From Geosiphon pyriformis uo1 (Eukaryota; Fungi; Glomeromycota): 64,000 nt of DNA. Positions within the stretch are counted from its first letter, which is position 1. Every line of letters starts with the position of its first letter. Positions 1-60,384 of the stretch are shown here, piece after piece. Location of the stretch: assembly GCA_016748015.1 (NCBI GenBank), contig JAAOMT010000494.1, positions 488,190 to 552,189 of the forward strand, given 5' to 3'. A program made the position numbers and the translations under genes. Below the pieces are notes generated by a model. That model did no database searches. It worked only from the letters and a program-made list of their open reading frames with translations, and was not told the DNA's origin.

Positions 1-1383
1 CAATGGAGCCAGCTCAAAGAGCTAATTACAGAATTTGCTGATATCTTTGCTGAAAACAACAATGACTTAGGAAGAACCAATTTGGTTCAACACCAAATTT
101 ATACAGGAGATGCCAAACCAAGAAGACAATAAGCATACTGAGTTGCTCCAGAAAGCCACCAATTCATCTAAAAAGAAGTACAACAAATGCTTAACAATGA
201 GCTCATCCAACCCTCCATAAGTCCTTGGGCTTCACCTGTAGTGCTAGTTAAAAAGAAAAATGGAAAGATACAATTTTGTGTTGACTACCGACAACTTAAC
301 AGTATTACAATTGGAGATGCCTACCCCTTTCCCCAAATTGATGACATGTTAGATGCCCTTGGAAAATCCAAATACTTTTCAACACTAGATTTAGAAAGCG
401 ATTACTGGCAAGTTGCTATGGATCCCAAAGATCATCCCAAAACAGCATTCACCACTCAAGGCGGAAATTACAAGTTCAATGTAATGCCTTTCGGATTATG
501 CAATGCACCAGCAACGTTTCAGAGATTAATGGATGTTGTGTACCAAGGACTTCTTTGGAAGTCAGTAGTCGTTTATCTTGACAATACTGATGTTTATTCT
601 TCATTGTTTGAATTACATTTAAAACACCTGCGAGAAGTTTTTCAACAATTACGAAAAGCAGGACTAAAACTCAACATCAAAAAATACTACTTTGGAAAAA
701 CAAGCTTGGCCTTCCTTGGTCATATTGTTAGTAAAGATGGAATCAAACTGGACCCTGAAAAAATCAGTGCTGTCAAAAACTTCAAAACTCCTCAAAACAC
801 TACAAAACTAAGAGGATTCATAGGGTTAGCCTCCTATTATCAGAAGTTTATCAAAAAATTCTCAGAAATTGCAAAACCTCTCAACCAGCTTATTACCAAA
901 AACATCAAATATGAATGGACTGCTGAATGCCAAAATGCATTTGAAATCCTCAAAGAAAAACTAACAACAGCTCTAATTCTCGCCTACTCAGATTTCAGCA
1001 ACCAATTCCGATTAGCAACAGATGCTTCGTATACTGCCTTTGGTGCTATCCTATCACAATTGGATGACAATAGAAATAAGCGAGTAATTGCCTATGCTAG
1101 CAGAACATTAAAACCAGCTGAAAAAAATTATCCTACCACTGAATTGGAAACAGCAGCTGTAATTTGGGCCCTACATCATTTCAACCTTTATCTTTGGCCA
1201 AAGGAATTCGATATTATCACTGATAATATTGGACTCAAATGACTTCAGAACAAAAATACTTAGCTAAACGCAAAACAAACCCGATGGACAGGATTTCTAG
1301 CAAACTATCGATACATAGTACATCATAAACCAAGAAAACTTCACACCAATGTTGACTGTCTCTTCAGAATGAGACAAAATTAG
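1..1383 (+). pseudogene. Gypsy reverse transcriptase-RNase H (A1), with premature stops
   Basis: SPWASPVVLV, FCVDYRQLN, STLDLES(D)YWQV, MPFGLCNAPATFQ, YLDN (YLDD), RNase H TDAS...E(L)E...TD. The frame ends RMRQN-TAG at 1381-1383. Confidence 0.95.
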
Positions 1384-1433
1384 AAAAAAAAAAACCAACA
1401 CTCAACTTAACTAACCAAAACAGCCAACAAACA

Positions 1434-2819
1434 ATGAATTTGGAAAACTACAACAATCTTAAACAATATTTGAAAACATTAACAATTCCAACAGATTGGT
1501 CTCCAGATGAAAAACATTGACTACAACAACAAGCCAAATAATATTTTCTACACAACAATATTATTTATCAGTGAAATTTCAAAAATCCAGACAAACCACT
1601 CAGATTAATACAAGAACAGGAAAAAGAGACTATATTATACAACATGCACTTAAATCTTTCATCAGCACACTTTGGAAAAGACAGCACCACCCAAAAAACA
1701 CTAGAATACTACTTTTGGCCTTGAATGAGAAAAGACATTCACGAATATGTCGAATTTTATGATAGTTGTTAAAGAAGAGAAAGAACACACCCTACTGAAC
1801 CATTAAACCCAATCAAAGTTGGACAGCCTTTTGACAGAATTGGTATTGATTTAGTCGGACCACTACCTATCACAAACCAAGGAAATTATTATATTGCAGT
1901 AGCTGTAGACTATCTTACCAAATGGCCTAAAGCCAGAGTCATTTAACGAGCAGATGCAAAATTAGTAGCAAACTTCATTTACAAAGACATCATTTGTAGA
2001 CATGGATGCCCAATAAAACTTTTATCTGATCAAGGAACACATTTTGTGAACAATTTAATCCAAAAAATTTGTGGATGATTTAATGTCAAGAGACCATTAT
2101 CTTCACCCTACCATCCATAAACCAATGGACTTATAGAACGTTTCAATAGAACATTGTGTGAATTATTAGCCAAAGTTTCAACTGATTTTGAGCAAGAATG
2201 AGATCTCTTTATTCCATCAGTGTTACTAGCATATAGAACACTAAAACAAGATACCACAAAACACACACCATTTGATTTAACTTATGGAAGGACAGCAACA
2301 TTACCAATTAGTTTTACAGTGGAAACATACCTAGCACAACCAATCAATAAAAACAATTTCCGGGAAACACTTCAGCGAAGAGCCTACACTCTGCTTAGCA
2401 CATTGGAAGAAAAACGATGAATAGCAGCCACCCATATTGAACATTCCCAAGCTCAACAAAAAAAATGGCATGATGACAAATTGCCTCCAGTCACCAATAA
2501 ATTTAAAATTGGAAACAAAGTTCTCTTACACAGAACTAAAGCTGAAAAACAATAGAGTGGAAAATTCGAAAATAAATGGGATAGACCATTTTTTATCCAT
2601 AAAGTTTTAGGCAACGGATCATAAAAGCTAAGACTTGATGACAAAATCCTAACAAAAGTTGCACATGGAGATTATTTAAAACACTATAATTCCAGAAACA
2701 ATCCTGAACTATTAATTCCACAAATTGGTATACATTCTTCTTTAATCAATCCCAAAGACATTCTCCAAAATTTAGAACCAATAGTTGTTATTAAACAACC
2801 TCCCAACTTGAACACTTAA
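1434..2819 (+). pseudogene. Gypsy integrase (A1), separate ORF with own ATG, about 10 premature stops
   Basis: ATG AAT at 1434, HHCC-type N-terminus, GIDLVGP / SDQGTHF / NGLIERFNRTL DDE motifs, GPY/F-like region, LEPIVVI tail, no chromodomain seen. Confidence 0.9.
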
Positions 2820-2941
2820 TTTAAATTTATTATTATAGTTATATCATTATAATTTAGAAACAATCTCACAAAAACAAAACAAAAATAACATAAAAACCCA
2901 TACACCAAAAATAATTTTCTTTTATTTTCAAATCTCTTATA

Positions 2942-3661
2942 ATGTCTATTTCTCAAAACATTCAACAATTATCCCAAAAACTAATGTTAGCTTTAAAAAC
3001 AATACCCGAATTATTCATTACTATTACTGGAAATCACATTAATTATACCCAAACAGAAGTAGTTGCAAATTTAGCTCTAAATACACAAAAATATCACCCA
3101 TATAAGAAGAACACAAGAAGTTATTCTGGAATTCATTTACCAGAACTTTTGAAGCTTGCTTTAAGAGAAAACTTATTGCTCACTCCTATTAGTATTCCAC
3201 CAAATGTTACTATTCAACAAAAACTTCAACTGTGTCTTAATGAAGAAAATGGCAAATACCTCCCAATATATAGATATTTTTATATTAGAAAAACACTTCA
3301 TGAGCAAAAACTAGAGCTTATAGCAGCAAACCTTGCAAAAAAAGCTATTCGGAAACAATTTCACAATGAATTCAAGACAACAGCTGGGCCTACAAACAGT
3401 CATTATAAACTAAGAGCTGCTCTTAGACTTTATGACCTATTCTACACCTGTGAAAACGTCCTACAAAACCCAATTTTACAGCCTTTGAAGATTCAATACA
3501 TTGGAAAGCTCACAGAACTGAAATTTCAACAATTTTCAGACCAAATTTCTTCAATAATTTTGGATTATTATCTGGAAATTACAGACAGTACTTGGACTTT
3601 GATGGAGCTCAGTTTTGAGGAGAAGGTTATGTTACCAGACAAAATTAGAGATATTGTTTAA
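2942..3661 (+). CDS. Gypsy accessory ORF3 (239 aa, unknown function), intact; runs across the PPT into the 3' LTR
   Basis: Uninterrupted ATG-TAA ORF. A same-length orthologue is present in A2 (16872-17591) and diverged homologues in both B copies. Confidence 0.85.
   Translation: MSISQNIQQLSQKLMLALKTIPELFITITGNHINYTQTEVVANLALNTQKYHPYKKNTRSYSGIHLPELLKLALRENLLLTPISIPPNVTIQQKLQLCLNEENGKYLPIYRYFYIRKTLHEQKLELIAANLAKKAIRKQFHNEFKTTAGPTNSHYKLRAALRLYDLFYTCENVLQNPILQPLKIQYIGKLTELKFQQFSDQISSIILDYYLEITDSTWTLMELSFEEKVMLPDKIRDIV
3617..3629 (+). other. Polypurine tract of A1
   Basis: GAGGAGAAGGTTA immediately precedes the TGTTAC LTR start; the same tract is present in A2. Confidence 0.8.
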
Positions 3662-4611
3662 CATAAAATTACCCTTATAAATCTTATCATTAATTAGCAT
3701 ATATTATCATTCAAATTATCACTTATTACATTAGCAAAATATCCGAAATTATCATTTAATTAATAACCTAATTTGTATATAACACAAATGTAACCTAATT
3801 GTGATGATTAATAATGCAATACTCTGGACTATGTAACATTCAAAAAGTTTGCTGAAATTTGTAAAAAATTTGCCGAAATAATTGATAGTTTGCCGAAATA
3901 TTTAATAGTTTGCAGAAATAACTTGTAGTTTGCCAAAATGTATCTTTAGTTTAGCGAAATTATAGAAAATAGCAAAGTTCAAGTTCATAGAATAGTGTTA
4001 CAACAAGTTGTATAAAAGAAGAGCTTCTCTCTTCAAGAAAATATATCTTACTTCAGATTTAATAATTAGAATCATCCTTTACATACAAAAACAAAATAAA
4101 TATCAAATAATTCAAAAAATCAAATCCTTAATTATTTTCCTTTTAAAATTAACCAATTCCTACTAAAACAGTTTTGAAATTGATTAGCTACTAATTTCAA
4201 TAAACTGTTAGTGACTTCAGACCTGGATAGAAAAACGTTTCCTTTGATAAAATTCTATTTCTTTTACATTTCTTTTATTTTTCTTTTCTTTTCTTATTAC
4301 AATCATTAGGGTAGTCTACAGACGAGATTCCTGTAGAAGAGTTGACTTTCACAGCAAAGTAACTACACATTTTAGTGAGCTTCCAGACAAGCAATTCCTG
4401 GGAAAGAGTTGACATTTACTACAACATAACTATACAAAGTAACTGGCACGGAATTGGCCCTTCCACTTATAAGCCCAACAGTTTAAATTATAGGAGATAA
4501 TTTGAAGATAAATTCAGTTACTAAAGATTTAACTACTTCCTGAAAACATGAATTCACAACAAATCAATATTAACAACATTCAAGAAAAGAGACCAAAAAC
4601 CTCTGGTAACA
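3630..4611 (+). repeat. 3' LTR of A1 (982 bp)
   Basis: Perfect 10-bp terminal inverted repeat TGTTACCAGA...TCTGGTAACA. Homologous and equal in length to 15922-16903. Confidence 0.93.
3848..3965 (+). repeat. Tandem array of about six 20-21 bp units (core TTTGCCGAAAT) in the family A LTR
   Basis: tttgctgaaat / tttgccgaaat / tttgccgaaat / tttgcagaaat / tttgccaaaat / tttagcgaaat read directly; the array is also present in the A2 LTR. Confidence 0.85.
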
Positions 4612-5078
4612 CCAGTTAACATCATTCTTATCCTCAATTCAGACACATTTTTAGACATTGAGACAGGCCCAGAGGAATTCCACGAGCATTACCAAAATTT
4701 GGCACCAACAAAAGAAGAGCAGGAACAGCATTTGAAAGAAATAAACACCTAATTATGTGATTACTGTTTGATTTTATGTGACTTCTAATATTGTAATAAG
4801 TGTAATCTTATCTACAATTCACTATCATGCATAATCTACACAATTCCAAAGGAAAACAAACCAATCAGCAGCTGTGTATTATAATCAAAATCACCATTCA
4901 ATCCTAATTCAAACTCTGACAACAATGACAACAAAAATAATAGTTCCAGCTCTGTTCAAAATGGTCATAAAATAACAACAATTTAAATTTTGATTCAAAC
5001 CCAGAACAATATATCATGCTTTTTGACCTTATCAAAGAGCAGAAACTTAAATAGTTCAGCAATAATAGTAAAAATATT

Positions 5079-5469
5079 ATGCCAAAACACACACATAATA
5101 CCAATATAGGGTTTGATTTAAGATATTCAGGAAAAGATGCTATCAAATTAGAACCACATTCACACATCTGCATTAATCTCAAAATAGTATTAGAAATTCC
5201 AGCAACAACAATGGTTCAATTAACATCTAAGAATAGTTTAGTAAAAAAAGAAATCAACATCAGAGAAGAAATAATTAATGCAGAATATATGAGAAATATT
5301 ATTATAATGCTACAAAATAACTTAGAAAAGGCTTACATAGTAAAGCCAAATAAAAAGATAGCACAGGCAATATTTCTGCCTCTGGTTAAAATAGCTCAAT
5401 TAGTATTAGTGAGAAACAGGGAAGAATTAAAGATTACAACTAAAAAGATACAGGAATTTGGATTCATGG
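5079..5469 (+). pseudogene. dUTPase domain of B1, split in motif 5 by the solo LTR
   Basis: GFDL (motif 1), SKNSL (motif 2), IINAEY (motif 3), KIAQAI (motif 4) and QEFGF|GR (motif 5, resumes at 7244). Confidence 0.85.
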
Positions 5470-7243
5470 TGTTATAGGTGATTATTTGGGGTCTTAAAAC
5501 AAATAACAAATCTGTAACTTGGTGTTTAATTAATATAAAGCTGTTGGTTTCTGAAGATTAACTGTATCTGAAGATTTTGGTTAAGTCTTTTGTATAATAG
5601 ACAGAGATTCCAATGTGATTTTCTTTAAATGATGTCTTTAGTGTCAACCTGTAGTTGTTGTCTATTACTTTCCGGAATTGCAATTTTATTAATTTTTTTC
5701 TCAGTGTGGTGGCTGGTGTTACAGGTAAACTGGGTAGAGTATGGTAGTAACATTTGGTGCTCTATTTTTGGGTTGTCTTTTATGGTTGTCTGCTTTTTCT
5801 GCCATGTTAGTATTATTAGTCTCTGAAAATCTATTTTTGGATGTGAATTTACCTGTTGAGTTCTTTGGTTATAAAGCACAAAGTTTGTCTTTTATCAATT
5901 GCAATGTTTTCCACAAATATGAGCTTTCTTCTCCTTACTAACAAGCACAGTTATTAAGATCTGGCATTGTTTTTTCGCTCTTTTGGTAAGCTACTAAGAT
6001 AACGTTAATATCCAAAACTTAAGGAGAGCTTTCTTCTTTTACTAGACTATCACAAAGTCTATTCCAAAACAGTCAATTTTCTTATATTGTTGCTCCAAAA
6101 AAAGAAAAAAAAAAAGAATTAGTTCCCGTCAATCACCATAATTAAGAGTAATTGGTCCAAATCATTAAAGATTTGAGGTGTTTATGCTAATGGCATCTGT
6201 CTCGGAACAAAGATAGAAAATACTGATTTTAATTTCAATTAAAATTCGTAAGATTGGAGAACATGAATTGGTAAATTAGATTTTGTGTTTTTTAATAATT
6301 ATTGTATTTCAGACTATAGATATCTGATAAGTAAAATACAAAGTAAAAATTGATTTCTAACTAACTGTCTGTTTTTTTTAACTTTTCCAATTATTTGCTT
6401 TTATACATTCTTTTGGTTTTACAAGATTGCTTTCAATTACTTTATTATTGCTAGTTATTGCTCATTATTGCTATCTATTGCTCTTTATTGCTAACTATTG
6501 CTTGTTATTACTAGCTATTGGTTGTTATTACTAGCTATTGCTCACATTTGTCCTATGTTACCTCAAGTTGTATCATGTTTTTCTTGTTACATTTTCTCAT
6601 AGCTTTTTGGTTTTTCTACTTGAGTAACACTGACAATCTCCTGGTAAGCTATCCTCAAATCTGAATGTTTATCCTTATTTCTGGGTTTTTTACCAGTACT
6701 ATATTTTAATGTCAGTAACTTAGTGTTTTAATTTTTTAATCAATTAGTACACAACAAGAAATAACAAAACAAAAGAAAATAAAATAAAGAAAATAAAGAA
6801 ATAAGCCAAAACAATAAATGTTAGTATCCTGTCAATAGCTGTAATCAAGAGCTATTGTTTCAGTGTAGTTAAATATTAATTACTATCAACATAAAGTGTT
6901 AATAGTAGAGAGTAGATTTGAGATATTAAATAATTATTTATTAATATTTTGTGATATGAAAGATTGCTTAGATTAAATCTAAACTGAGAGGTCTTTTTTT
7001 TTTGCTTTTAATGCTACTGCTATATATACTTAATTTATGTTCTATGAGATCACTCACATTCCCGAGTGATGTGCTATGATTTTTTGAACAATGTGCCCTA
7101 ATTTTCTAATATCACTCCATATTGCTAAGCAATGTGCTGTAATTTTTGACATTGCTCCATATTGCTGAACAATATGCTCATGTGCTAACTACTATTCCTT
7201 TATTGGTCTACTATTTCTATATCTGTTTTCTTTATGAATAACA
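5470..7243 (-). mobile_element. Solo LTR (1774 bp) related to family B LTRs, 4-bp TSD ATGG
   Basis: TGTTAT...ATAACA ends, ATGG at 5466-5469 and 7244-7247, and the B1 reading frame rejoins across it. The reverse complement matches both ends and the middle of the B LTR. Confidence 0.9.
6442..6543. repeat. Imperfect ~10-bp tandem repeat (TTATTGCTA-like) inside the solo LTR
   Basis: Repeated tattgct/tattact units seen directly. Confidence 0.8.
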
Positions 7244-9080
7244 ATGGGTAGAATAAATATACCAGTTAATATGGCAGAGAAAAAAATTGTTAACAAGAGA
7301 GAAATTATCTTTACTCATCAATCAATTTTTATTTTACTATATAACCAATATATGCTAGCCATAGAAAAGGGAGTAAAAGATCAAGCTCAAATTTTTGAAG
7401 CAGAAACTACTATGTGTGAACCAGAGAAGATTGGACTTACCAATTTTTATATATTAGTCAAAAGTCTAAAAAATATCAAAATTTCTATCTACAACATAAC
7501 AGGAAATGTTCTTGAGATACCAAAAAGAACTACCATCAGATATTTAAGTACTGAAGTTAAAAAACAACTACCAAACCCCATTCCAGACTTTCCACAACTG
7601 TGTGAATATGTGGATATCATATTACAAACAATATATGGACAAGAAGAATATTATCTGCTCTAGCCAGAACAATTAGAACAGATAAACTTGGGAAATCTAA
7701 ACCCACTATAATATATACAGCTTAAAATATTACTCAATAATTTTAATAACATCTTTGCCAGTGAAAATAAATTTGGCAGAAGTGACATAATCCAGCATCA
7801 GATCAAGACTGGAGATATAATGCCAATCAAACAAAGAGCATATAGAATATAACCAGTTAGTTATGAGATCATTTGTCAAGAAATTAATTGAATGCTTAAC
7901 AATGGGTTAATTCAGCCATCAATAAGCTTATGGTCATTACCAGTAATACTAGTTCATAAGAAAAATAAGAAAATTTGCTTTTGTATAGATTACTGAAAAC
8001 TAAATAGAGTAACAAAAGGAGATAACTACCTAACTTCAAATATCCAAGAACTGTTTGACACTTTTGAAGGAAAAAAATGATTCTTAACTTTAGACTTAGA
8101 CAGTGGTTACTGGCAAATAGCCATAAAACCAGAAGATAAGGAAAAAATGACTTTTACAACTCAAGAAAGAAATTTCAAATTTGAAGTTATGCTATTTGGC
8201 TTGATGAATGCTTCTGCCACATTTCAACAGCTTATGAAAATTGTCTATATTAAACTGCTATAAAAATCAGTAGTCATATATCTGGATGACACCAATGTGT
8301 TTTCCAAAACATTTGATAATTATTTGTATTATTTCTAACAAGTATTTAAAAGACTAAAAAGAGCCAAACTAAAGCTAAATACCACTAAATGCTTCTTTGG
8401 CAAAACAGAATTGAAGTTTTTGAGACATGTCATAAGCAAAGATAGTATTAAAACAGATTCAGACAAAATTGAGATAGTTAAGAACTTTTCAGTACCCACT
8501 AACTTGACTGAATTATGAACATTTTTGGGATTTGTAAGATACTACCACTATTTTATCAAAAACTTTTTTAAAATAGCTCAATCATTATACTAGCTCTAAA
8601 CAAAGAATACCAAATATGATTGAATGAAAACCCAGTAAAAAGCTTTTGATACATTAAGAAGAAAGCTTATTCAAGCTCCAATATTGATCTATCTGGACTA
8701 CAGCAAATCATTCATCATTACCACTAATGCATCTGGCCAAGCATTAGAAGCAGTATTATCTCAGAAAAGACTGAATAAACAAGAACACTCAGTAGTTTAC
8801 ATCAACAGAAGCTTAAGTTCAGCTAAAAAGAACTATGAAACTTCAGTACTAGAACACTTAGCTATCTATTAAGCTGTCAGCAAATGGAAAGAATACTTGA
8901 GTCAAAAGTTTGATGTTTATACTAATTATAAAAGACTGACTTCAATTCAAAAGCAAGAATTTGGAGATAATTGTCATGTCAGATAGAAGATAGAACTTTT
9001 ATTATTCAATTATACAGTATATTACAAAAAAAAAAAAAAATGGAAATGCTGATGGCTTGTCACAAATAAGACAAATCTAA
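7244..9080 (+). pseudogene. B1 pre-RT domain, RT and RNase H (many stops)
   Basis: [26 protein letters not shown], RNase H ITTNASG. The frame ends RQI-TAA at 9078-9080. Confidence 0.9.
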
Positions 9081-9110
9081 GAACATTTCAACTCAAAAAT
9101 ATAACAAAAG

Positions 9111-10493
9111 ATGAATATACAAAAATATTAACAATTCCAACATTATATTAATATCCAACAATTCAAGAAGAAATTATCTTCAAAAGAACAAAGCCATATT
9201 AAACAACAATCCAAATATTTCATTACTGACCAAGAGATACTTTATCAAAAAAACAGAAAAAATTCAGATCAATTAACCAGAGTAATCACAAAACCAGAAA
9301 AAAAAACAATATTGTTTAACATGTACTCAGATCCAACAGCAAAACATTTTTATAAAGAAACAACCATGGAAAGAACCAGAAAAAAATACTATTAGTCATC
9401 AATATATTCAGATATTATTCAATATGTTCAAAATTGTAATGCTTGTCAAAAAAGAGGAGAAACAAAACCCAGTGAACCATTAAGATCAATCAAAGTGAGA
9501 CAACCATTTGACCACATTGGAATTGATTTAGTTAGACCATTAACAATAACCAGTAAAAGAAACAAATATATTGCAGTAGCCATAGATTATTTTACTAAGT
9601 GGTCAGAAGCAAAAGCCATTCAAAAAGCAGATGCAGAATCTGTTGCCAAATTTATTTATTAAGATCTAATTTGTCAACACGGATGTTCAAAAGAACTACT
9701 ATCAGATCAAAAAACTTACTTCATAAACAAAACACTAACAAAACCAAGTCAAAGATTTGAAATCAAAAAACCATTATTATTATCATACTATTCACAAACA
9801 AATGGGTTAGTTAAAAAGTTTAATAGAACATTGTGTAAAGCAATTGCTAAAATTAGCCAAGAAAAGCAAGACAAATGAGATTTGTTCATACCATCAGTAT
9901 TATTTGCTTATCAGACAATAAAGCAAGATATTACACAAGCAACACCATTTGAATTAGTATACAGTAAAACAGCAGCATTACTAGTTAAGATAGAAGTCAA
10001 CACATATCCAACTGAACCAATAACAAAAGACAATTTCCAAGAAACATTGTTGAAAAAAACATATGAATTAATAGAAATACTAGAAAACAAATGATAAAAA
10101 ACAGCTGATAATATTCAAAAGTCACAAAAAAAACAAAAAAAAAGACACAATAACCAATTACCAGATAAATCAGTTGAATTTAAGATTGGAAACAAATTAC
10201 TTTTACATTATACCAAAGCAGAAAAACAATGGAATGGAAAATTCAATCCCAAATGAGATAGATTATTTCACATACAAGAAATTCTTGGAAATGGAGCTTA
10301 TAAATTAAGATAAGACAACAAAATCTTAACCAAAGCAGCACATGGTGATCAACTGAAACCATACTACCATATAGTATTATCATCTACCAATAATATTCCA
10401 CAACTGGAAGTACAATGAATACTAGTCCAACCAAATAAAATTCCATGAGATTTGAAACCAATTATAATCATTGAACCAAACATGTCAAATTGA
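9111..10493 (+). pseudogene. B1 integrase (separate ORF, decayed)
   Basis: ATG AAT at 9111, GIDLV, LSDQ, NGLVKKFNRTL, KPIIII tail, TGA at 10491-10493. Confidence 0.85.
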
Positions 10494-10548
10494 ATTACCA
10501 AAAAAATATATAAAGATATGGTATACATGACAAAAGATGTCAGAAAAA

Positions 10549-11172
10549 ATAAAAATTACCAATGACATTTACTCACTAGCACAACAACTTTTTCAATTAA
10601 TCCAACAACAAAAAATGGAAATTACAATTAATCAACAAACCATCAAAAACACCAAAAAGAGACCATAAAGTAAAGTACAAAAAACAACAAAAAACATTAT
10701 TGACAAAATAACTACAAAAATGAAATTGGTAATAGAAGCACAACCAAAAGTCATCCAATATCAGAAGTTGACAATAGAAATATGAAATTGATGGACACAA
10801 CAATTTCTAAGAAACTTTTGTTATTTTCACTTGGGACGATATCTAAATATCCAAAACTTATATATGGATAAAACAAAGTAATTATTCGATCCAGAAATAT
10901 TATAACAACTAGAGCAATTTGTGGGAAAGAACAATTTAACCACACAAGCACAAGCCATCTATTGATTACAAGCTGAATTTTAAGACTGATCAGAAATCTT
11001 ATTCAATCCAATAATGAACTCCATTACTATTAACCAAATGGAAAAAATAACCAATGCTCAATTTGAAGAATTACAAAACAAGATAATACAAGTAATTATT
11101 GAAAAAAAAGTTCAAGAAATACTCAAAAATAAAAAAATAAAATTAGGAGATCTTAATAAAGCTTAATATTAA
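10549..11172 (+). pseudogene. B1 ORF3 relic
   Basis: Reads ...RNFCYFHLG...EQFVGKNNLTTQAQAIY...EKITNAQFEELQ..., homologous to B2 and A ORF3; several stops; ATG apparently mutated to ATA. Confidence 0.7.
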
Positions 11173-15921: not shown

Positions 15922-16903
15922 TGTTACTGGAGGTTTTTGGTCTCTTTTTAGCTCTTGTATGTTTGTTGTAATGCTGTTAATTCACGATTATGGAAAGTGT
16001 TTGAACCTCCGATAACTGAATTTATCTTCAAATTATCTCCTATAATTTGAACTGCTGGGCTTATAAGTGGAATGACCAATTCCGTGCCAGTTGCTTTGTG
16101 TAGTTACATTGTAGTAAACATCAACTTTTTTCCAGGAATTGCTCGTCTGGAAGCTCACTAAAATGTGTAGTTACTTTGCTGTAAAAGTCAACTCTTCTAC
16201 AGGAATCTCATCTGTAGACTACCCTAATAATTATAATAAGAAAATAAAAGAAAGAAAATAAAAAAAATGTAAAAGAAATAGAATTCTGTCAAGGAAAACG
16301 TTTTCTATTCAGGCCTAGAATCACTAACAGTTTACTGAAATTAGTAGCTAATCAATTTCAAAATGTTAGTTGGGTTTTGAGAATTTTCTAAGTGTAATAA
16401 TTAAAGAATTTGGTTTTTCAAATTATTTGATATTTATTTTTTTTTGTGTGTATAAGAACAGTTCTAAGAGGTAAATCTAAAAGTAAAATACATTTTCTTG
16501 AAGAGAGAAGCTCTTTTTTTATACAACTTGTTATAACATTATTCTATGAACTTGAACTTTGCTCTTTTCTACAATTTTACCAAACTAAAGATACATTTCG
16601 GCGAACTACAAGTTATTTCTGCGAACTATTAGATATTTTGGTGAATTATCAATTATTTCAGCAAATTTCTACAAATTTTGGCAAACTTTTGAATGTTACA
16701 TATTTCGGGGTATTGCATGATTGATTATTGTACTTAGGTTACATTTGTGTTATGTACAAATTAGGTTATTAATTAAATGATAATTTTGGACATTTTGTTA
16801 ATGTAATAAGTAATAATTTGAAACAATAATATATGCTAATTAATGATAAGATTTATAAGGGTAATTTTATGCTAAACAATATCTCTAATTTTGTCTGGTA
16901 ACA
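15922..16903 (-). repeat. 3' LTR of A2 (982 bp)
   Basis: TGTTAC...GTAACA termini; reverse-complement homologue of 3630-4611. Confidence 0.92.
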
Positions 16904-17591
16904 TAACCTTCTCCTCAAGACTGAGCTCTGTCGAAGTCCAAGTACTGTCTGTAATTTCCAAATAATAATCCAAAATTATTGAAAAAATTTGGTCTGAAAA
17001 TTGTTGAAATTTCAGTTCTGTGAGCTTTCCAATGTATTGAATCTTCAAAGGCTGTAAAATTGGGTTTTGTAGGACATTTTTACAGGTGTGGAATAGGTCA
17101 TAAAGTCTAAGAGCAGCTCTTAGTTTATAATGACTGTTTGTAGGTCCAGCTGTTGTCTTGAATTTATTGTAGAGTTGTTTCTGAATAGCTTCTTTTGTGA
17201 GGTTTGCTGCTATAAGCTCCCATTTTTGTTTGTGAAGTGTTTTTCCAATGTAGAAATATCTATATATTGAAGTATAGTTGTAGTTTTCTTCATTAAGACA
17301 CAGTTGAAGTTTTTGTTGAATAGTAGCATTTGGTAGAATACTAATAGAGGTGAGCAATAAGTTTTCTTTTAAAACAAGCTTCAAAAGTTCTGGTAAATGA
17401 ATTCCAGAATAACTTCTTGTGTTCTTCTTATACGGATGATATTTTTGTGCATTTGGGGCTAAATTTGCAACTACTTTTGTTTGGATATAATTAATGTGGT
17501 TTTCAGTAATAGTAATGAATAATTTGGATATTGTTTTTAAAGCTAACATTAGTTTTTGGGATAATTGTTGAATGTTTTGAGGAATAGACAT
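16872..17591 (-). CDS. Gypsy accessory ORF3 (239 aa), intact, copy in A2
   Basis: Ungapped alignment with the 2942-3661 product; no stops. Confidence 0.85.
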   Translation of the reverse strand: MSIPQNIQQLSQKLMLALKTISKLFITITENHINYIQTKVVANLAPNAQKYHPYKKNTRSYSGIHLPELLKLVLKENLLLTSISILPNATIQQKLQLCLNEENYNYTSIYRYFYIGKTLHKQKWELIAANLTKEAIQKQLYNKFKTTAGPTNSHYKLRAALRLYDLFHTCKNVLQNPILQPLKIQYIGKLTELKFQQFSDQIFSIILDYYLEITDSTWTSTELSLEEKVMLPDKIRDIV

Positions 17592-17713
17592 TATAAGAGA
17601 TTTGAAAATAAAAGAAAATTATTTTTGGTGTATGGGTTTTTATGTTATTTTTGTTTTGTTTTTGTGAGATTGTTTCTAAATTATAATGATATAACTATAA
17701 TAATAAATTTAAA

Positions 17714-19099
17714 TTAAGTGTTCAAGTTGGGAGATTGTTTAATGACAACTATTGGTTCTAAATTTCGGGGAATGTCTTTGGGATTGATTAAAGAAGAATG
17801 TGTATCAATTTGTGGAATTAATGGTTCAGGATTGTTTCTAGAATTATAGTGTTTCAAATGATCTCCATGTGCAACTTTTGCTAGGATTTTGTCATCAAGT
17901 CTTAGCTTATATGATCCATTGTCTAGGATTTTATGGATAAAGAATGGTCTATTCCATTTATTTTCAAATTTTCTACTCCATTGTTTTTCGGTTTTAGTTC
18001 TGTGTAAGAAAACTTTGTTTCCAATTTTAAATTCATTGGTGACTGGTGGCAATTTGTTGTCATGCCGTTCTTTTTGTTGAGCTTGGAAGTGTTCAATGTG
18101 GTTTGCTGCTATTCGTCATTTTCTTTCCAATGTGCTAAGCAGAATGTAGGCTCTTTGTTGTAGTGTTTCCTGAAAGTTGTCTTCATTAATTGGCTGTACT
18201 GGGTATGTTTGCACTGTGAAACTAATTGGTAATGTTACTGTCCTTCCATAAGTTAAATCAAATGGTGTGTGTTTTATGGTATCTTGTTTTAGTGTTCTAT
18301 ATGCTAGTAACACTGATGGAATAAAGATATCCCATTTCTGCTCAAAATCTGTTGAGACTTTGGCTAAAGATTCACACAATGTTCTGTTAAAACATTCTAC
18401 AAGTTTATTTGTTTGTGGATGGTAGGATGAAGATAATGGTCTTTTAACATTGAATTGTTCACAGATTTCTTGAATTAGATTGTTTACAAAATGTGTTTCT
18501 TGATTGGATAAAAGTTCAATTGGGCATTCGTGTCTACAAATAATGTCTTCGTAAATGAAGTTTGCTACTGATTTTGCATCTGCTTGTTGAATGGCTCTGG
18601 CTTCAGGCCATTTGGTGAGATAATCTACAGCTACTGTGATATAATGGTTTCCTTGGTTTGTAATAAGTAGTGGTCTGACTAAATTGATACCAACTCGGTC
18701 AAAAGGCTGTCCAACTTTAATTGAATTTAAAGATTCTGTAGGGCGAGTTCCTCCTCTTCTTTGACAACTATCACAAGATTTAATGTATTCATGAATGTCT
18801 TTTCTTATTTGAGGCCAAAAGTAATATTCTAGTGTTCTTTGGGTGATGCTGTCTTTTTCTAAGTGTGCTGATGAAAGGTCTGAGTGCATATTATATAAAA
18901 TGGTTTCTTTTTCATGTTTTTGTATTAATCTGAGTGGATTGTCTGGGTTTCTGAAGTTTCAATAATAGATCATGTTGTTGTGTAAGAAGTATTGTTTGGC
19001 TTGTTGTTGTAACTGATGTTTTTTATCTGAGGACCAATCTGTTGGGATTGTTAATGTTTCCAAATATTGTTTAAGATTGTTGTAGTTTTCGGGGTTTAT
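17714..19099 (-). pseudogene. A2 integrase (separate ORF; start ATG>ATA)
   Basis: H-H-C-C (MHSD..AH..CDSC), GINLV, LSNQ, NKLVECFNRTL, KWNRPFF, LEPIVVI. Confidence 0.88.
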
Positions 19100-19145
19100 T
19101 GTTTGTTGTTTTGTTGTTAATTCAAATGGGTGTTGGTTTTGTATT

Positions 19146-50277: not shown

Positions 50278-51139
50278 TGTTACTCATAGAAATATAGGAA
50301 ATATATTAATATAATTATTAGCCAATCAGAAGTAAGCATAGTAAATATGAAATTCCAGGATTCTTCTCAAAAATTGCAGAATTTCAGAAATTTCAGAATT
50401 CCCTGACAAAGAATTGCAGGATTCCAGAATTCCAGGATTCTTCTCAAAAGAATTGCAGGATTCCAGGAATTCCAGAATTCCTGTCGTGAAGAATTGAGGA
50501 ATTGAGGAATCTTAATTATGTATATATAGTGGTAGTGTTAGAAACAGAAAAGACAGAATCGATACCACAGAATTCTTAGCCAAAAAACAAAATCATCAAA
50601 TAAATAATTATTCCATATCTCAATCCACTTTCCACTATCAATACTTCATGTTGATAGTAATTGATACTTAACCACACTGGAACAATAGCTCTTGATCATG
50701 GCTATTGACGGAATACTAATCTGCCCAACTGCCTGGGCTTATTTCTTTTCTTTCTTTATTTTCTTTCATTTTTCTTTATTTTATTTTTTTTTGTTGTTTA
50801 CTAATTGAGTAAAAAGATTAAGCACTAAGTTATTGATGTCAAGAATAGCCTGGTAAAAGACCCAGAAATAAAGATAGAATTTTATATATTATCAGATAGC
50901 TTACCAGAAGAGCATAACTACCAGACTAAATCCGGCCACTATGCTGAGAAAGAAATTGGGAAAACTCTTGGAAAGATACATCTACTATTAACACTATTGA
51001 ATCTCTGTCCATTATACAAAGGACTCCATCAAAACCTTCAGACACAACACCTTCAGAACATCATCAACGGAAGTAGCTTTTGAGTACCAAGTTACAGGTT
51101 TGTTATTTAATTCAACAGTAGAAACAATCCTCTGTAACA
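50278..51139 (+). repeat. 5' LTR of B2 (862 bp) with GGATTCCAG/GAATTGCAG tandem array at about 50350-50510
   Basis: TGTTAC...GTAACA; direct repeat of 59543-60384. Confidence 0.95.
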
Positions 51140-51141
51140 TT

Positions 51142-51158
51142 TGGTGCTTCCTGTGAGG
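51142..51158 (+). other. tRNA primer binding site TGGTGCTTCCTGTGAGG
   Basis: Starts 2 nt after the LTR with TGG (complement of CCA); implies a tRNA ending CCUCACAGGAAGCACCA. Confidence 0.85.
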
Positions 51159-51201
51159 TATAATCCTACAGAGAACCAGCACTGACAACACCAAACCAAA
51201 A

Positions 51202-54200
51202 GTGGCAGAATCAGAAAATATAGAAGCAAACCATTTAGGATTCGCAAAATCCTTATTTCAACACTATTGTCAATACTTGGGATTAAACCACAATTATATA
51301 TCTGCCGAATCAGCCTTTAATTTCTATGTCAACGAAAAGATTTCCTCTTTATTAGAAACACCAATAAATACTGAATCAGCAAGAGAAACTTTTTATAAGG
51401 AATTAATTCAAAACACCAACCTACCAACAAATCATAATTTCACATCCATCATTACTAAGATCAACAAAGAAATTGAACATCATACTCAACAAAAATATCC
51501 AATTACATATGCTAGTAAAGGCAAGGGAAAATTACAAACACCAGCAGTAACACCCAGAAAAATACAGCCACCTGCTTAGAAGAAAAACAGAGTTGAATCC
51601 CCAAGCAACCCATCCTACCACTATACACCTGGAAGCACCATTAACATACTATCAACAGACACGTTTCCATCAACTGTGACATCAGCATTTGGATGATTTC
51701 CATTCCAAAGTAGACAAAGGAAAACAGAATTGTTAGGACCATATGGCAAATACTTTAAGGGATTTAATTCACAATTATCAACCCTATTAAGATTTCGATC
51801 ACCACTGTCTCCACCAGATTTTGGAATCTCTGATCCATGGGAAGCAGCAGAATCAGAAAAAGAGGAAGAAAAATCAGAGGATCAAGAATTTACTTATTAG
51901 CACCCGATTACTGAAAACCTGGAAATTGAAACCCCAAATTTTCAAATTCAGCAAAATTCAGATCTAGAAAATTTGGAAATCAAAACTTTGAATCATTAAA
52001 GACAGAACAATCCAAACTCCAAATTAATTAATCAGCAAAACTTACCTTCAGTAATCATCATCGATCAACTGCCAATTAATCCCATAACCGAATCTATACA
52101 GCAGCCATTTCAACTATCACCCTAACAACCAGTACAACAACAACTGCTTCAACAGCCACCACAACCACCTAACTTAGATCCAATGGCCTATGTCTCAATC
52201 ACAAAACTTGACAACTTTACTGGTAAAGAGAATGACGCTCAAGTATGGCTGAATGATGTAGAAAAGGCTATCGCAGCCAACAGATGGAATGATGCTCGAG
52301 CAATGCAAGCCATTCCCTACTTTCTTAAGGATATCACCAATTCATGGTACTAAAGCCTGATTAATAAACCACAAGATTTTAATGCTTTCAAAGCGGAATT
52401 CCTAAGATATTTTAGCAACAATAACAGCATCAATCGCCTAGTCAATACATTCACCATCATGAAACAAGAAGAAACTGAAGCAGTCACCACTTACCTGGAA
52501 CGCTTCCATCAAAACCTACACCAAATTCAAGCAATTGACGCCAACTATTTTACAGCACCACAGATACTCAATCAGTTTATCCATGGCCTGTGCAGCAGCA
52601 TCTTGCAACATGTATGTCTGTTGCATCCAGATACTCTTCAAGACGCAGTTACACATGCCAGAGATTTTGAATCCGCTGAGTCAGAGGCTAACCATGCCCA
52701 AGCCATTAATCTAGTAATGAATGGATTATCTAAATTGGATTCCAAATTGGAAAAGTTCAGTGAATCAATTAATAAGAGATTGGAAGAATACTTAGCTGAC
52801 AATTACGCCATTTATCAGCCTCCACAACGACACAATAATCAAGGAAACTCTAATCGTGCTCAAAATCAGCCACATCTATCTTCATCAACCAATCAATGGT
52901 AACAACAAGAAATGTATATCTGCCACTATTGTGGTAAACAAGGACACATCCAAATTGACTGTCATCAGTGTTTAAATAACTAATGATCAGGAAATCAATA
53001 TCAAAACTCTGATCACCAGTCCCAAACTCCAAATCAGTACCCAAATCAAAACCAACCCGCTTATCTACCAGTGATGCAGTCATCCATCTATCAGTCTCCA
53101 ATGTACCAAGCTCTAATCTATCAACCACAGCCACAAGTGATTTATTAACAACTGCAGCCACAAATAATCTATCAACCCCAACAAATCCAAACACCACCCC
53201 AAAGCTTACCACCCAACGGAACCCAAAGACTGAAAATAACTCAACAGAGCTGGAGATCGGCAATAGTAGTCCATCAACTGATCCTCAGTTCTTCACAGCA
53301 ATCATCTAAATTACGCCAGTGAAATTTGGGTACTGGTCAAACCCAAAACCCGAATTCCCAGAACTATTTAAGTCTCCTGGTCACCCCAGAAGACACCTCA
53401 GCCAATAACCCAGTATTCGCCCAAAAACAACTACTCACCAGTAATATCTCACCTGCTACCATCACTGAAGACGAGTTCTTGGCTGCTATTTTCCCATTCA
53501 AATTTGAAGAAACAGGTGCAATGACATTATTTAGTGGAGCCACTCTTGAAGCCAAACCAATCACCGCAATGTACACTGATGCCAAAGTCGAGGGACAATC
53601 CATCAAATTGATCTTTAATAGTGGTTTAGCAGACAGTATCATCACACGGCAACTCATGGAACAATTAGGATGCTGAGTTGATTGAGCTGCCAGCACCAGA
53701 ATCATTACAGCCAATGGAGTGACCAAAACTCTAATCGGCAAAATTGACGACTTCCCTTTCAAAGTACATAGCATTGTGACTCCCATTAAAGTTCTAGTGA
53801 TGGAAGCCACTCAATACCAAGCTCTCATTGGTAATAACTGGCTATTCAAAGTCAATGCAACGTTAGACTGGAACACCCAGGAACTCCAGCTAACATATCA
53901 AAGCCAATACATATGTGTACTGGCCATGTGTGGTCACTTCAAAACTCCTCCAAGAGAGAAACTATTGATTAAACTGGAAGAAGAGAAAGAGAAACCTACC
54001 TGAGAAGCCTACCAAGTGTCGTGGGCTGATGAAAAGCACAACAAACTGCTGCCAATACTCTCCTGGGACGACAATGACAATGGAAAAGGGAAACAAAAGG
54101 AAGAACTTATCTGGGAAACTGATGACTTGACCTGGACCGACAACAACAAAAGCAAACTGACTTCAAGCTGGGATTGGAAAAACAACAAAGAAGAAAAGAG

Positions 54201-57200
54201 AAAAGGGAAAAAGAAGGAGGAAAAAAACACTCAAGCCAACAACACTTATATCCCATACACCTATGGTCAACAACAACCATCGACCTATTGCCGACCCAAA
54301 CTGATATGTGTTGATTGCAACAAGAAATTGTCATCAATAGGTGCATGCTGTGGTGACGACGAAGAATATCAAATGGCAACCAAGTTCTATTGCTGCGCAT
54401 GCCATATCAAACGTTTTGGAAGACCAAAACAAATGGGAAAATAGGATAATATGCCATGTATAGCCTGTGAAGAAACTCTTCTGGATGAAGGGATGTGGAA
54501 TGACATCCCCAGACGTAAAAGAATGTGTGACATATCGTGTCAATACACAATTCTAATAAGCGACTGGGTAAGGAAAAAAACCCCAATAGAAGCAGCCTGG
54601 AGAAGAACCATACAGCAACTGAACAGTTGTCCACATGATGACAACAAAATTTGGTGAAAGGCACTCGCCAAAATTGAAGGGGCATCACCTGAAGAAATAA
54701 AAACAATCAAAGATAACCCCCCAGAATCTTTAGAGCTTGATTGGGATGCAGAACCCATCATAAATCTCCTAGATCTGGAACAATTCCACAAACACTACCA
54801 AGAGTTAGCACCCACAAGAGAAGAACAAGAACAATGGTTAGAGCAGTTGAACACTCGACTATATCAACACTGTCTAATTCTCTGTGACTTTCAGTATTGT
54901 GATGAGTGTGACCTCATTTACAATCCACCACCATGCATAATCTATACAATCCCTGAAGAAGAAGAACCAATTAGCAGATGTGCATTAGAATCGAAATCAA
55001 TTTTCAATCCTGATTCAAACTCCAACAATAATGATGACAAAAACACTGGTTCCAGCTTTGTTCAATATGGTGACAACAACAATACCGATTCCAACTCAGA
55101 TTCCAACTTCGATTTAAACTACAAACAATACATTGCATTATTAGATCTCTCCAAGAAACAAGAGTTGAAATGATATAGTGACAATGGGGAAAGTATTATG
55201 CCAGAACATACACATGATATGGATGTAGAGTTTGATCTGAGATATCCAGGAAAAAATGCCATCAAATTAGAACCATATTCATGCACCTGCATTGATCTGA
55301 AAATAGCACTAGAAATTCTGGCAACAACAATGGTTCAATTAGCATCTAGGAATAGTTTAGCGAAAAGAGGGATCAATATAAGAGAAGGAATAATTAATGC
55401 AGAATATGTAGAAAATATCATCGCCATGCTACAAAATGACTCAGAAAAAGCCTATATAATAGAGCTCAACGAAAAGATAGCACAGGCAATATTCTTGCCT
55501 TTGGTTAGAGTAGCTCAGTTAGTGTCAGTGAGAAAAAGGGAGAAATTAGGAATAACAGTGAAAGGAATACAAGGATTTGGATCAACGGGTAGAATAGAGA
55601 TACCAGTTAATATGGCAGAGAAAAAAATTGTTGGCCAAGGAGAAATTATTTCAACTGGTCAAGTTATTTCCATTCCACCATATAGCCAGTACATGCTAGC
55701 AATAGGAAGGAAAGAAAAGAAGCAAGAACAAATTTTTGAAGCTGAAGCAAACCTTTGTGAATCAGGAGAGATTGGGTTGATCAATCTCCACATACCAGCC
55801 AAAAACTATAGCAGCATAAAAATTTCCATCTACAACAACACTGGCAATGTCATCAACATACCAGAAAGAACCACTATCAAATATTTAACCACAGAAATAG
55901 AAGACCAACTACCAAACCCCATTTCAGACTTTTCACAACTTTGTAAATATGTTAACATCACATCACAAACAATCTATAGATGAGACAAATGTTATTTGCT
56001 CCAACCAGAACAATTGGAACAAATGAACATAGGAAACTTAGATCCACTCCAATGTATGCAGCTCAAGATGTTACTCAACAATTTCAATGACATCTTTGCC
56101 AGCAAAAATGAGTTTGGCTGAACTGACATCATCTAGCATCATATCAAGACTGGAGATACAATGTCAATCAAACAAAGAGCATACAGAGTGCTGCCAACCA
56201 GCCACGAGATCATTTGTTAAGAGATAAACAGAATGCTTGACAATGGGCTAATTCAACTATCAATGAGCCCATGGTCATCACCAGTGGTACTCATCCATAA
56301 GAAGAATAGAAAAATCCAGTTTTGTGTAGACTACAGGAAACTCAATGGTGTAACTCGTGGAGACAGTTATCCAACTCCATGAATACAGGAATTATTTGAC
56401 GCTTTTGGTGAGAACAAATAATTCTCAACATTAGATTTGGACAGTGGTTACTGGCAAGTAGCCATGAATCCAGCTGACAAAGAGAAGATGGCATTTACTA
56501 CTAGAGAAGGGAATTTCGAATTTGAAATGATGCCATTTGGCTTAACCAATGCCCCAGCAATTTTCCAACGGCTAATGGAAATTGTTTATACTGGCTTATT
56601 GTAGAAATCAGTAGTTGTATACTTGAACAACACCAATGTATTCTCAAAAACGTTTAATGATCATCTTCATCATTTTCAACAAGTGTTTGAAAGACTAAGA
56701 AGAAAAGGACTAAAGTTAAATGCAACAAAGTGCTTTTTTGGCAAGACAAAACTAAAATTCTTGGGACATATAGTTAGCAAAGATGGCATCAAAACGGATC
56801 TGGAGAAAATAGAGATAGTAAAGAACTTTCTAGTGCCAACCAATATGACAGAACTAAAATCATTCTTGGGATTCACCAACTACTATCAACATTTTATCAA
56901 GAACTTTTCCAAGATAGCACAGCCACTCAACCAACTGCAAAACAAAGATACAAAATATGAATGGACCGAAAATCAACAAAAAGCTTTTGATATTCTAAAA
57001 AGAAAGCTTATACAAGCTCTAGTACTGATCTATTCAGATCACTACAAACCGTTCATCATCACCATGGATGCATTTGGCCAGGCATTAAGAGCAGTACTAT
57101 CTTAGAGAAAACCAGATGGCAGAGAACATCCAGTGGCATATGCCAGCAGAGGTTTAACACTGGCTGAAAAGAACTATGAAACACCAGAAAAAGAACACTT

Positions 57201-57423
57201 AGCAATATACTGGTCAGTCATAAAATGGAAAAAATATTTGAGCCAGAAGTTTGAAGTGTATACAGATCACAAAGGATTAACATCACTTCAAAAACAAGAA
57301 TTTGGAGATGGAAGACAGTCAAGATGAAAAATGGCACTCATACCATATAAGTACACTATACATTATAAAAAAGGAAAAGACAATGGAAATGCAGATGGTT
57401 TATCATGAATGAGACAAATCTAA
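51202..57423 (+). pseudogene. B2 polyprotein in one frame: N-terminal helical domain, capsid, CCHC knuckle (52921-52962), Q/P-rich linker, aspartic protease (~53560-53930), Cys-rich domain (~54300-54930), dUTPase (55198-55590), RT, RNase H
   Basis: All ORF-track fragments from 51202 to 57327 listed here share one frame. CHYCGKQGHIQIDC, LIFNSG (DSG), [19 protein letters not shown]. Internal stops are explicable as CAA/CGA/TGG transitions. Confidence 0.92.
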
Positions 57424-57486
57424 GAACATTTCAACCCAAAAATATAACAAAACCAGAACAATACCAACGAAAAAATACAACAAAAG

Positions 57487-58845
57487 ATGAACATACAAAA
57501 ATATCAACAATTACAACATTATATAAACACTCAACAGTTCAAGGAGAATTTATCTCAAATGGAACAAAAGAGTATCAAACAACAATCAAAATATTTTATC
57601 ATTCACTGAAATATGCTTTATTGGAAAAATAGAAGGGACTCAGATCAACCAACCAGATTAATTACAGAACCAAAAAAAGAGACAATATTATTCAACATGC
57701 ACTTAAATCCAACAGCAGGACATTTTCACAAAGAAGCAACCATAGAAAGAACCAAAAAAAGATACTATTGGCCATCAATGTACCCAGACATCATTCAATA
57801 TGTTCAAAATTGTGATGCTTGTCAGTGAAGAGAAGAAACAAGACCCAGTGAACCATTAAGACCAATCAAAGTAGAACAACCATTTAACTGTATTGGAATT
57901 GATTTAGTTGGATCATTAATAATCACCAGCAGAGGAAACAGATACATAGTAGTAGCTATGAACTATCTCACTAAATGGCCAGAGGCAAAAGCAATTCAAA
58001 GAGCAGATGCAAAATCCATTGCCAAATTCATTCATCAGGATTTGATTTGTCGACATGGATGTCCAAAAAAATTATTATCAGACCAGAAAACTCATTTTGT
58101 AAACAGAACATTAACAGAATTGAGCCAAAGATTCGGAATCAAGAGACTATTATCATCATCATACCATCCACAAACCAACGGATTAGTAGAAAGATTCAAT
58201 AGAACACTGTGTAAAGCAATAGCTAAGCTCAGCCAAGAAAACCAGAACAATTGGGATTTGTTCATATCATCAGTACTATTTGCTTATTGAACAATGAAAC
58301 AAGATACTACACAAGCAACACCATTTGAATTAGTATATGGGAGAACAGCAACATTACCAGTAGAGAGAGAAATTAAGACATATCCAGCTGAACCAATAAC
58401 AGAAGAAAATTTTCAAGAAACATTGCTGAGAAGAACATATGACTTAATAGAAACATTGGAAAACAAATGAAAAAGAGCAGCTAATAATATTCAAAAGTCA
58501 CAAAAAAAACAGAAAGAAAGACATAATAGTCAACTACCAGACAAACCAGTTGAATTTAAGATTGGAGACAAAATATTACTACATCATACCAAAGCAGAAA
58601 AACAATGGAATGGACCATTTCACATAGAAGAAATTCTAGGAAATGGAGCTTACAAATTAAGATTGGATAACAAAATTTTAACCAAAGCAGCACATGGAGA
58701 TTGACTGAAGCCATATCATGACATCACACTACCATCTACCAGTAATATTTCACAATTAGGAGTACAAAGAATACTAGTCTAACCAGATAAAATTCCACAA
58801 GATCTGGAACCAATTGTTATTATCAACAACAACACATTAAATTGA
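57487..58845 (+). pseudogene. B2 integrase (separate ORF)
   Basis: ATG AAC at 57487; MH..AGH..CDAC, GIDLVG, LSDQKTHF, NGLVERFNRTL, WNGPF, LEPIVII. Confidence 0.9.
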
Positions 58846-58899
58846 TCAATCAAAAGAATATATAAAAACATGGTAGATACGACAGGAAATATCAGAAAA

Positions 58900-59529
58900 A
58901 TGGAAATTACAGACAACATTCACACATTAGCATAACAACTCTTTCAATTAATCCAACACCAGGAAATGAAGATTACAATCAATCAACAAACCATTCGATA
59001 TCAAGATACTAGAAAGACATTGCAACTTAAAACACCAAAGAAAACTGAAAATACGGTGGACAAAATCATGGTGAAAGTAAAATTAGCAATAAAAGAATCG
59101 ACAAAAGAGTCACTATATCAAAGGTTGACTAAAGAAACTTGGAATTGGTAGATACAACAATTTCCAAGAAACTATTGTTATTTTTACTTGGGACAACACG
59201 TAAATATTCAGAATCTATATACAGATAAAACAAAGCAATTATTTGACAAAAGAATACTACAACAATTAGAACATTTTGTGGGAAAGAACAACTTATCCAC
59301 ACAAGCCTTGGCCATATACTGAATACACACAACATTTTAGGATAAACCAGAAATATTGCTCAACAAAGCAATGGATATAGTTACCAGTAATCAATTAGGA
59401 AAAATCACCAATGCTCAATTTGAAGAATTACAGATCCAAATAACACAAGTAATTCTCGAAAACAAAATCCAGGAAATACTTCAAAAGAGGGAATTACATG
59501 AGTTGGATTTCAACAGAGCTCAATATTAA
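58900..59529 (+). pseudogene. B2 ORF3 (about 209 aa, four internal stops)
   Basis: MEITDNIHTLA*QL... and PRNYCYFYLG...AIY*IHTTF...LGKITNAQF align to family A ORF3. Confidence 0.78.
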
Positions 59530-59542
59530 AAAGAGAAAATAA

Positions 59543-60384
59543 TGTTACTCATAGAAATATAAGAAATATATTAACATAATTATTAGCCAATCAGAAGTAA
59601 GCATAGTAAATGTGGAATTTCAGGATTTCTCTCAGGAATTGCAGGATTCTAAGAATTTCAGGATTTCCCAACAAGGAATTGCAGGATTCCAGAATTGCAG
59701 AATTCTTCTCAAAGGAATCACAAGATTCCAGAAATTCCAGGATTCCTGTCGTGAAGAATCGAGGAATTGAGGAATCTCAATTATGTATATATAGTGGTAG
59801 TATTAGAAACAGAAAAGACAGAATTGATACCACAGAATCCTTAGCCAAGAAACAAAATAATCAAATAAATAATTATTCCATATCTCAATCCACTTTCCAC
59901 TATCAACACTTCATGTTGATAGTAATTGATACTTAACCACACTGGAACAATAGCTCTTGATTATGGCTATTGATGGAATACTAATCTGCCAAACCGCCAG
60001 GGCTTATTTCTTTTCTTTCTTTATTTTATTTTTTTTTATTGTTTACTAATTGAGTAAAAAGATTAAGTGCTGAGTTATTGACGTCAAGAATAGTCTGGTA
60101 AAAGACCCAGAAATAAGAGTAGGATTTTATATATTATCAGATAGCTTACCAGAAGAGCACGACTACCAGACTAAATCCGGCCACCATGTTGAGAAAGAAA
60201 TTGGGAAAACTCTTGAAAAGATATATCTACTATCAACACTATTGAATCTCTGTCCATTATACAAAGAACTCCATCAAAATCTTCAGACACAACACCTTCA
60301 GAACATCATCAACGGAAGTAGCTTTTGAGCACCAAGTTACGGATTTGTTATTTAATTCAACAACAGAAACAATCCTCTGTAACA
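59543..60384 (+). repeat. 3' LTR of B2 (842 bp), preceded by PPT 59528-59542
   Basis: Direct repeat of the 5' LTR. Confidence 0.95.

Follow-up and report, generated by a model that had tools for sequence, protein, structure and literature searches.

The open reading frame downstream of the integrase in four retrotransposon copies of Geosiphon pyriformis, hereafter ORF3, represents a third gene, conserved within a Ty3/Gypsy lineage that also carries dUTPase. It is a real, selected accessory gene family that occupies a known env-type position. The copies lie in a 64,000-nucleotide stretch of the genome, called the window throughout, in which element families A and B are each represented twice (A1, A2, B1 and B2).

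The third gene and its carrier elements

We located ORF3 in element A1 at 2942..3661 on the plus strand and in A2 at 16872..17591 on the minus strand. Each encodes 239 aa, and the two are 87% identical. The original prediction described both frames as intact, and indeed no stop interrupts 2942-3661 (+) or 17591-16872 (-). It also described the A1 integrase (IN; 1434..2819, +) as decayed, with about 10 stops; we counted 12 in-frame stops there and 2 in the A2 IN. The homologue that it had placed at the same site in family B is confirmed in homology and position, although the B copies are broken: ORF3 of B2 (58870..59529, +, with MEITDN at 58900) contains 4 stops and that of B1 (+, with approximate ends at ~10518..11172) contains 9. 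The homology between A and B ORF3 is supported by BLASTP (24% identity, pairwise E 3e-6), by a profile-profile comparison (probability 83%, E 8.6e-6, 183 columns) and by the B protein P0121, which an A-only profile scores at 18.6 bits, compared with a maximum of 3.6 among the 101 of 200 shuffles reported. The motifs on which this relationship had been proposed are present, although one of them, PIYRYFYIG, proved to be a composite of A1 (..YIR) and A2 (SIY..).

B2 is a full-length element (50278..60384, +) with the features of a Ty3/Gypsy LTR retrotransposon: LTRs with TG..CA ends at 50278-51139 and 59543-60384 (+) that are 7.6% diverged, a primer-binding-site (PBS)-like site from 51142 (+), a polypurine tract (PPT) and a 4-bp target-site duplication, ACAG. 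The window contains no tRNA gene with which the PBS could be matched. A single frame encodes gag, protease (PR), dUTPase, reverse transcriptase (RT) and RNase H (RH), followed by a stop and then by an IN without chromodomain (57487-58845, +), an arrangement that retains the gag-PR-RT-RH-IN order of Ty3/Gypsy. The ~320 codons of B2 gag that precede the capsid domain (51202-52160) have no Pfam match. Neither do the Cys-rich parts of Pol that lie between protease and dUTPase in B2 (54200-55000) and in the corresponding region of A2; these are possible zinc-binding accessory domains.

In A1, the RT-RNase H end of pol (1..1383, +) is terminated by a stop, and IN forms an independent ORF that has an ATG of its own. 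The same succession of RNase H end, stop and IN with its own start is found in 5 of 5 loci, namely A1, A2 (where the IN start codon has decayed), B1, B2 and the metagenome contig L001. IN lies outside the Pol polyprotein in all five; three of the five RH-IN spacers are in frame, so readthrough is conceivable. The spacers are A/C-rich and measure 50 (A1), 46 (A2), 30 (B1), 63 (B2) and 24 nt (L001), and their regions lie at 1381-1436, 9077-9112 and 57421-57489 of the window and at 772-801 of L001. A chromodomain, the mark of chromoviruses, was matched in none of the three IN sequences scanned at E 0.01, as had been expected from the first reading of the DNA.

The original prediction placed ORF3 between IN and the 3' LTR, which does not hold for family A. 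There, the last 15 codons contain a purine tract (3617..3626, +), the putative PPT, and the start of the LTR at 3630, and the A1 3' LTR (3630..4611, +; 982 bp with a 10-bp terminal inverted repeat) overlaps the final 10 codons and the stop. The A2 3' LTR lies at 15922..16903 (-). PPT and LTR start are also inside the 3' end of ORF3 in L001 and L002, whereas ORF3 of B2 stops before the PPT, the purine tract following directly after the stop. Because PPT and LTR start overlap the end of ORF3, the C-terminal motif conserved in A-type proteins partly reflects these DNA signals, and we did not count it as protein conservation. On the 5' side, the IN-ORF3 spacer (2820..2941, + in A1) is ATG-free and G-poor; it shows 0/122 differences between A1 and A2, which is unsurprising because it contains only 2 G and 11 CpA. 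Short repeated motifs are present in U3 of the B LTR (59620-59750) and the A LTR (3845-3960) and offer candidate sites at which a regulator could bind.

At the end of A1 lies a dUTPase-containing pol fragment of B type (window 4612-5610), succeeded by an inverted B-type LTR end, a pattern of nested insertions. Between A1 (1-3661) and A2 (16872-20528), differences amount to 17% in RT-RH, 13% in IN and 8% in ORF3, those in RT being mostly at silent sites, and this suggests recombination between element lineages. Elsewhere the window holds decayed LINE-like elements (22173-28589, 35564-42190 and 44752-50283) with weak RRM, endonuclease, RT and RNase H matches. An aspartate-kinase-like exon (AA_kinase and ACT; 30899-31627, -) lies amid repeats, reaches at most 55-60% identity with bacterial relatives, in the best-matching segment, and is probably a host gene.

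Relatives, decay and selection

We searched for relatives of ORF3 beyond the window. A further homologue search listed the best 120 of 296 matches, and these were filled by Geosiphon copies. Among the 120 matches listed for the A query, 118 are named as hypothetical proteins of G. pyriformis and the other 2 belong to the window itself, and all 109 matches of the B query are from Geosiphon; the clusters matched number 204 and 109, respectively. A profile search of 1.84 billion representatives returned 35 matches, eight of which we examined: six come from Geosiphon, including further families C and D known from proteins alone, and two are metagenome proteins. The layout was read for one of the latter, whose contig, L001, carries RT-RH, a stop, a separate IN with 1 stop, a 316-nt spacer, an intact ORF3 and an LTR, the same arrangement as in the window. 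Identity between lineages is 17-37% for ORF3, 54-58% for IN and 50-58% for RT-RH, and for each of the three genes A has more in common with L001 than with B; at the level of sequence comparison, these values fit co-inheritance with fast evolution of ORF3. In a protein atlas, P0001 reached a best score of 0.79, and for P0256 a lead is provided by an unnamed Mucoromycota cluster of 98 members, matched at 0.94 with 176 features. No viral contig matched ORF3 or IN.

Extra ORFs between pol and LTR are an already known kind of gene. Within the literature covered, no description of the ORF3 family itself was found; the G. pyriformis genome paper and the supplements of PMC2864245 and PMC11952901, which lie outside that coverage, may hold one. 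According to excerpts of PMC7264820, plant LTR retrotransposons carry additional sense ORFs between pol and the 3' LTR (aORF-3S, env-like), which share with ORF3 their position, orientation, presence in most copies and unknown function. ORF3 differs from these in being fungal, in lacking a transmembrane segment, in accompanying a separate IN and, in family A, in overlapping PPT and LTR. The portion of PMC3248453 covered describes no such extra ORF. Excerpts of PMC2864245 place a dUTPase between PR and RT in the fungal Gypsy element PosPlaTy3-5 and in Phanerochaete and Tuber elements, and the legend of its Fig. 3 has an 'add. ORF' of unknown function drawn for some fungal elements. Compared by description, these elements share with those of Geosiphon the dUTPase between PR and RT and, in some of them, the presence of an extra ORF; the Geosiphon elements differ in having a separate IN and no chromodomain. 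Complex retroviruses have 3' accessory genes (nef, foamy bel and MMTV sag) whose reading frames extend over PPT and U3. By analogy of layout only, these genes resemble ORF3 of family A, L001 and L002 in being the 3'-most ORF and running into the LTR, unlike ORF3 of family B, which ends before the PPT.

The main argument originally made for selection, an intact ORF3 beside a decayed IN, is not significant. A1 and A2 together have 0 stops in ORF3 versus 27 in pol and IN; many of the pol stops derive from CGA codons, and ORF3 of family A has no CGA and few stop-prone codons. In ORF3, A1 and A2 disagree at 5 of the 46 non-Gln CpA sites; at this local rate, the 17 Gln and 2 Trp sites should have yielded ~2 stops, so that zero has P ~0.1. 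The higher pol rate would bring P closer to 0.01-0.03, but this case had been selected for its intactness. Stop density, which had been named as a check, reveals no ORF3 deficit in family B, where the gene decays like pol: the two copies have 4 and 9 stops in 214 codons each, against 6 and 9 in 450 codons each for IN (pooled, 13 in 2 x 214 versus 15 in 2 x 450). CpG-type decay is seen in all copies and fits TE methylation. Since the intactness of the A copies is within chance and those of family B degenerate as pol does, it is active elements and their lineages on which selection acts, not the inserted A and B copies of the window.

Between B1 and B2, dN/dS is 0.26-0.65 for ORF3, below 1 and similar to the 0.27-0.56 of IN, whereas between A1 and A2 it is 0.47-0.87 for ORF3 and comes near 1 with high transition weight. 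Subfamilies A and A' (23 and 27 near full-length proteins from the 120 matches listed) have fixed differences at 2/54 sites in residues 141-200 versus 42/135 elsewhere (P 1.6e-5), in a core that was chosen after seeing an earlier test. Set against within-subfamily changes, whose decay is even, the contrast has P 8e-4, in a comparison of proteins only, where recombination between subfamilies could mimic constraint. As judged from these sequences, the helical core of residues 141-200 (3362..3541, +; pLDDT 82-88) is under constraint between subfamilies. A conservative-versus-radical substitution test was not significant (P 0.22). The proposal of a soluble helical accessory factor kept by selection is thus supported, although the argument from an intact frame beside a decayed IN fails.

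The predicted protein and its possible family

A structure model based on 16 diverse sequences has pLDDT 70, with 80-90 in the core; the model from an A-only alignment (pLDDT 42) was unusable. The predicted architecture comprises a helix and hairpin (residues 5-37), a low-confidence linker (39-64) and a helical core (66-210). The linker, shorter than 30 residues and with pLDDT <50, is modelled as disordered. The absence of a transmembrane segment, proposed from the start, is borne out by the highest 19-residue hydropathy window, which is 0.3-1.3 in 10/10 proteins tested. The pI ranges from 5.4 to 9.5 across members, and not all are basic.

The linker contains KYHPY (residues 50-54; 3089..3103, +), a putative PY-NLS-like motif that fits the rule R/K/H-x2-5-PY as given in excerpts of PMC2408616, where yeast Hrp1 (RNNGYHPY) is an example. 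ORF3 would resemble PY-NLS cargo in matching this sequence rule within a predicted disordered segment. [RKH]x2-5PY occurs in the linker of 8/10 proteins tested, from A, A', C, one D protein and both metagenome proteins, and its chance of occurring in the linker window is 0.02-0.05 per protein. PY is missing in family B and P0260, and the proline is lost in 22/50 A/A' copies.

Searches of Pfam, PHROG, NCBIfam, PDB and BFVD with ORF3 gave no significant match. PDB sequence searches returned nothing under E 0.02, phage tblastn returned no match, and no RNA-binding family was matched. A fold search with the pLDDT-70 model, in which residues 1-80 were barely covered, found no match at E 0.001 in PDB or BFVD. 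The best fold Z was 5.3 among 48,161 chains and 4.3 among 992. ParB/Spo0J-type folds are at background level (6s6h, Z 4.3, rmsd 3.2, 60 aligned; 1vz0, Z 3.1, rmsd 5.6, 94 aligned). The best PHROG E, 0.001, came from single members only, with no family common to the lineages, and NCBIfam FtsQ (E 4.6e-4 in 3/16, all family A) was rejected as implausible in this context.

DUF1016_N (PF17761) was matched with a best E of 0.015, in 7/50 members, at ~13 bits compared with a curated cut-off of 32.8. Against 15 full-length bacterial domains, taken from 41 matches and a further search, the profile match spans ~100 columns with a score of 31 and probability 37% (maximum 22 in 40 block shuffles). The non-A families score 23.5 versus at most 16.2 in 25 shuffles; the A-only subset does no better than shuffles and the metagenome-only subset barely, if at all, better. 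Because DUF1016_N was picked out of 24,736 families, a choice that the pairwise E of 3.5e-4 does not survive, the resemblance is not significant. Excerpts of PMC1189080 describe the N-terminal domain of YhcG (DUF1016_N) as helical and of unknown function. ORF3 weakly shares Y..IG / G / R.Y..F with this N-terminal helical domain of YhcG-type nucleases, but the family is prokaryotic, and ORF3 lies far under its cut-off and has no nuclease domain.

Possible functions of ORF3

Among the roles originally put forward (anti-silencing factor, LTR transactivator, translational reinitiation factor and integration tether), the data give a weak preference to a regulator that acts in the nucleus and binds nucleic acid. 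The weak DUF1016_N resemblance and the PY-NLS-like motif tentatively point to a nuclear, probably DNA-binding regulator. Our favoured reading, held with less than even confidence, is that ORF3 is a soluble nuclear regulator, probably binding the element's own LTR and sustaining transcription despite host methylation. ORF3 would be expressed from its own or a spliced RNA, imported into the nucleus through the PY-NLS-like motif of the linker, and bind DNA there; with the element's own LTR as target, bound ORF3 would keep the element transcribed under host methylation. In plants, VANC proteins are anti-silencing proteins that cause sequence-specific methylation loss. Likened by function alone, two nuclear accessory proteins of LTR retrotransposons may be analogues: CERV of C. 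elegans Cer1, which is made from spliced RNA and acts on RNA export (excerpts of PMC10309623), and maize Grande gene23 (excerpts of PMC7264820), which is antisense whereas ORF3 is sense.

It is possible, if rather doubtful, that ORF3 acts on the element's RNA, in export of the full-length RNA or in translation of the downstream IN of a three-gene RNA. The element needs an unusual expression route because IN is a separate ORF, as it is in A1, A2, B1, B2 and L001. Rev acts in RNA export, and caulimovirus TAV aids translation of a downstream ORF. Among LTR retrotransposons, CERV sets a precedent (excerpts of PMC10309623). The second match of P0256 in the atlas is a closterovirus coat cluster (0.93, 156 shared features), which falls below the 170-feature mark. 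In yeast, Hrp1 and Nab2 exemplify the PY-NLS and bind RNA, but ORF3 matched no RNA-binding family, and with 3/5 RH-IN spacers in frame and each IN having its own start, readthrough or plain reinitiation could suffice. An integration cofactor, carrying the pre-integration complex into the nucleus or, substituting for a chromodomain, tethering it to chromatin, is unlikely. ORF3 adjoins IN and has the NLS-like motif, and no chromodomain was matched in the 3/3 IN copies scanned; yet many Gypsy integrases function without one, and the sequence of ORF3 changes much more quickly than that of IN.

It is highly improbable that ORF3 serves as an env-like or movement protein by which the element passes from one cell or nucleus to another. 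ORF3 is a sense ORF in the env position between pol and the 3' LTR, but it has only 210-240 aa, a hydrophobic segment is absent in 10/10 proteins, and hemagglutinin HA2 was matched without significance (E at best 0.07). We give equally little credence to the intact copies being host-kept (domesticated) or the frame being a functionless relic. The stop-free A copies next to 27 stops in pol and IN, and the many full-length gene models, would suit such an explanation, but the ~2 stops expected at the 5/46 local rate (P ~0.1), the broken B copies and an A1/A2 dN/dS near 1 with high transition weight speak against it, and in an independent locus, at an identity of 17-37%, a relic would not have preserved its reading frame and motifs. 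Returning to the LTR-binding regulator, a bolder form, which we consider improbable, is that the three genes of the lineage, gag-pol, a free IN and an LTR-entering regulator, mirror the plan of a complex retrovirus, the regulator being a prokaryote-related DUF1016_N/ParB-like DNA-binding anti-silencing factor that recognises its own LTR and counters host methylation.

LTR elements make up 41.2% of the G. pyriformis genome (excerpts of PMC11952901), and TE methylation is reported for Rhizophagus (excerpts of bioRxiv 10.1101/2021.03.30.436303). Hundreds of Geosiphon 'hypothetical proteins' (the 204 and 109 clusters matched) are transposon genes. Conserved and fast-evolving in several Gypsy families, ORF3 is a candidate for their multiplication under methylation, and as a small, soluble protein it is amenable to yeast tests. 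If true, the anti-silencing regulator would be a retrotransposon anti-silencing factor in fungi and could account for the LTR expansion of Geosiphon.
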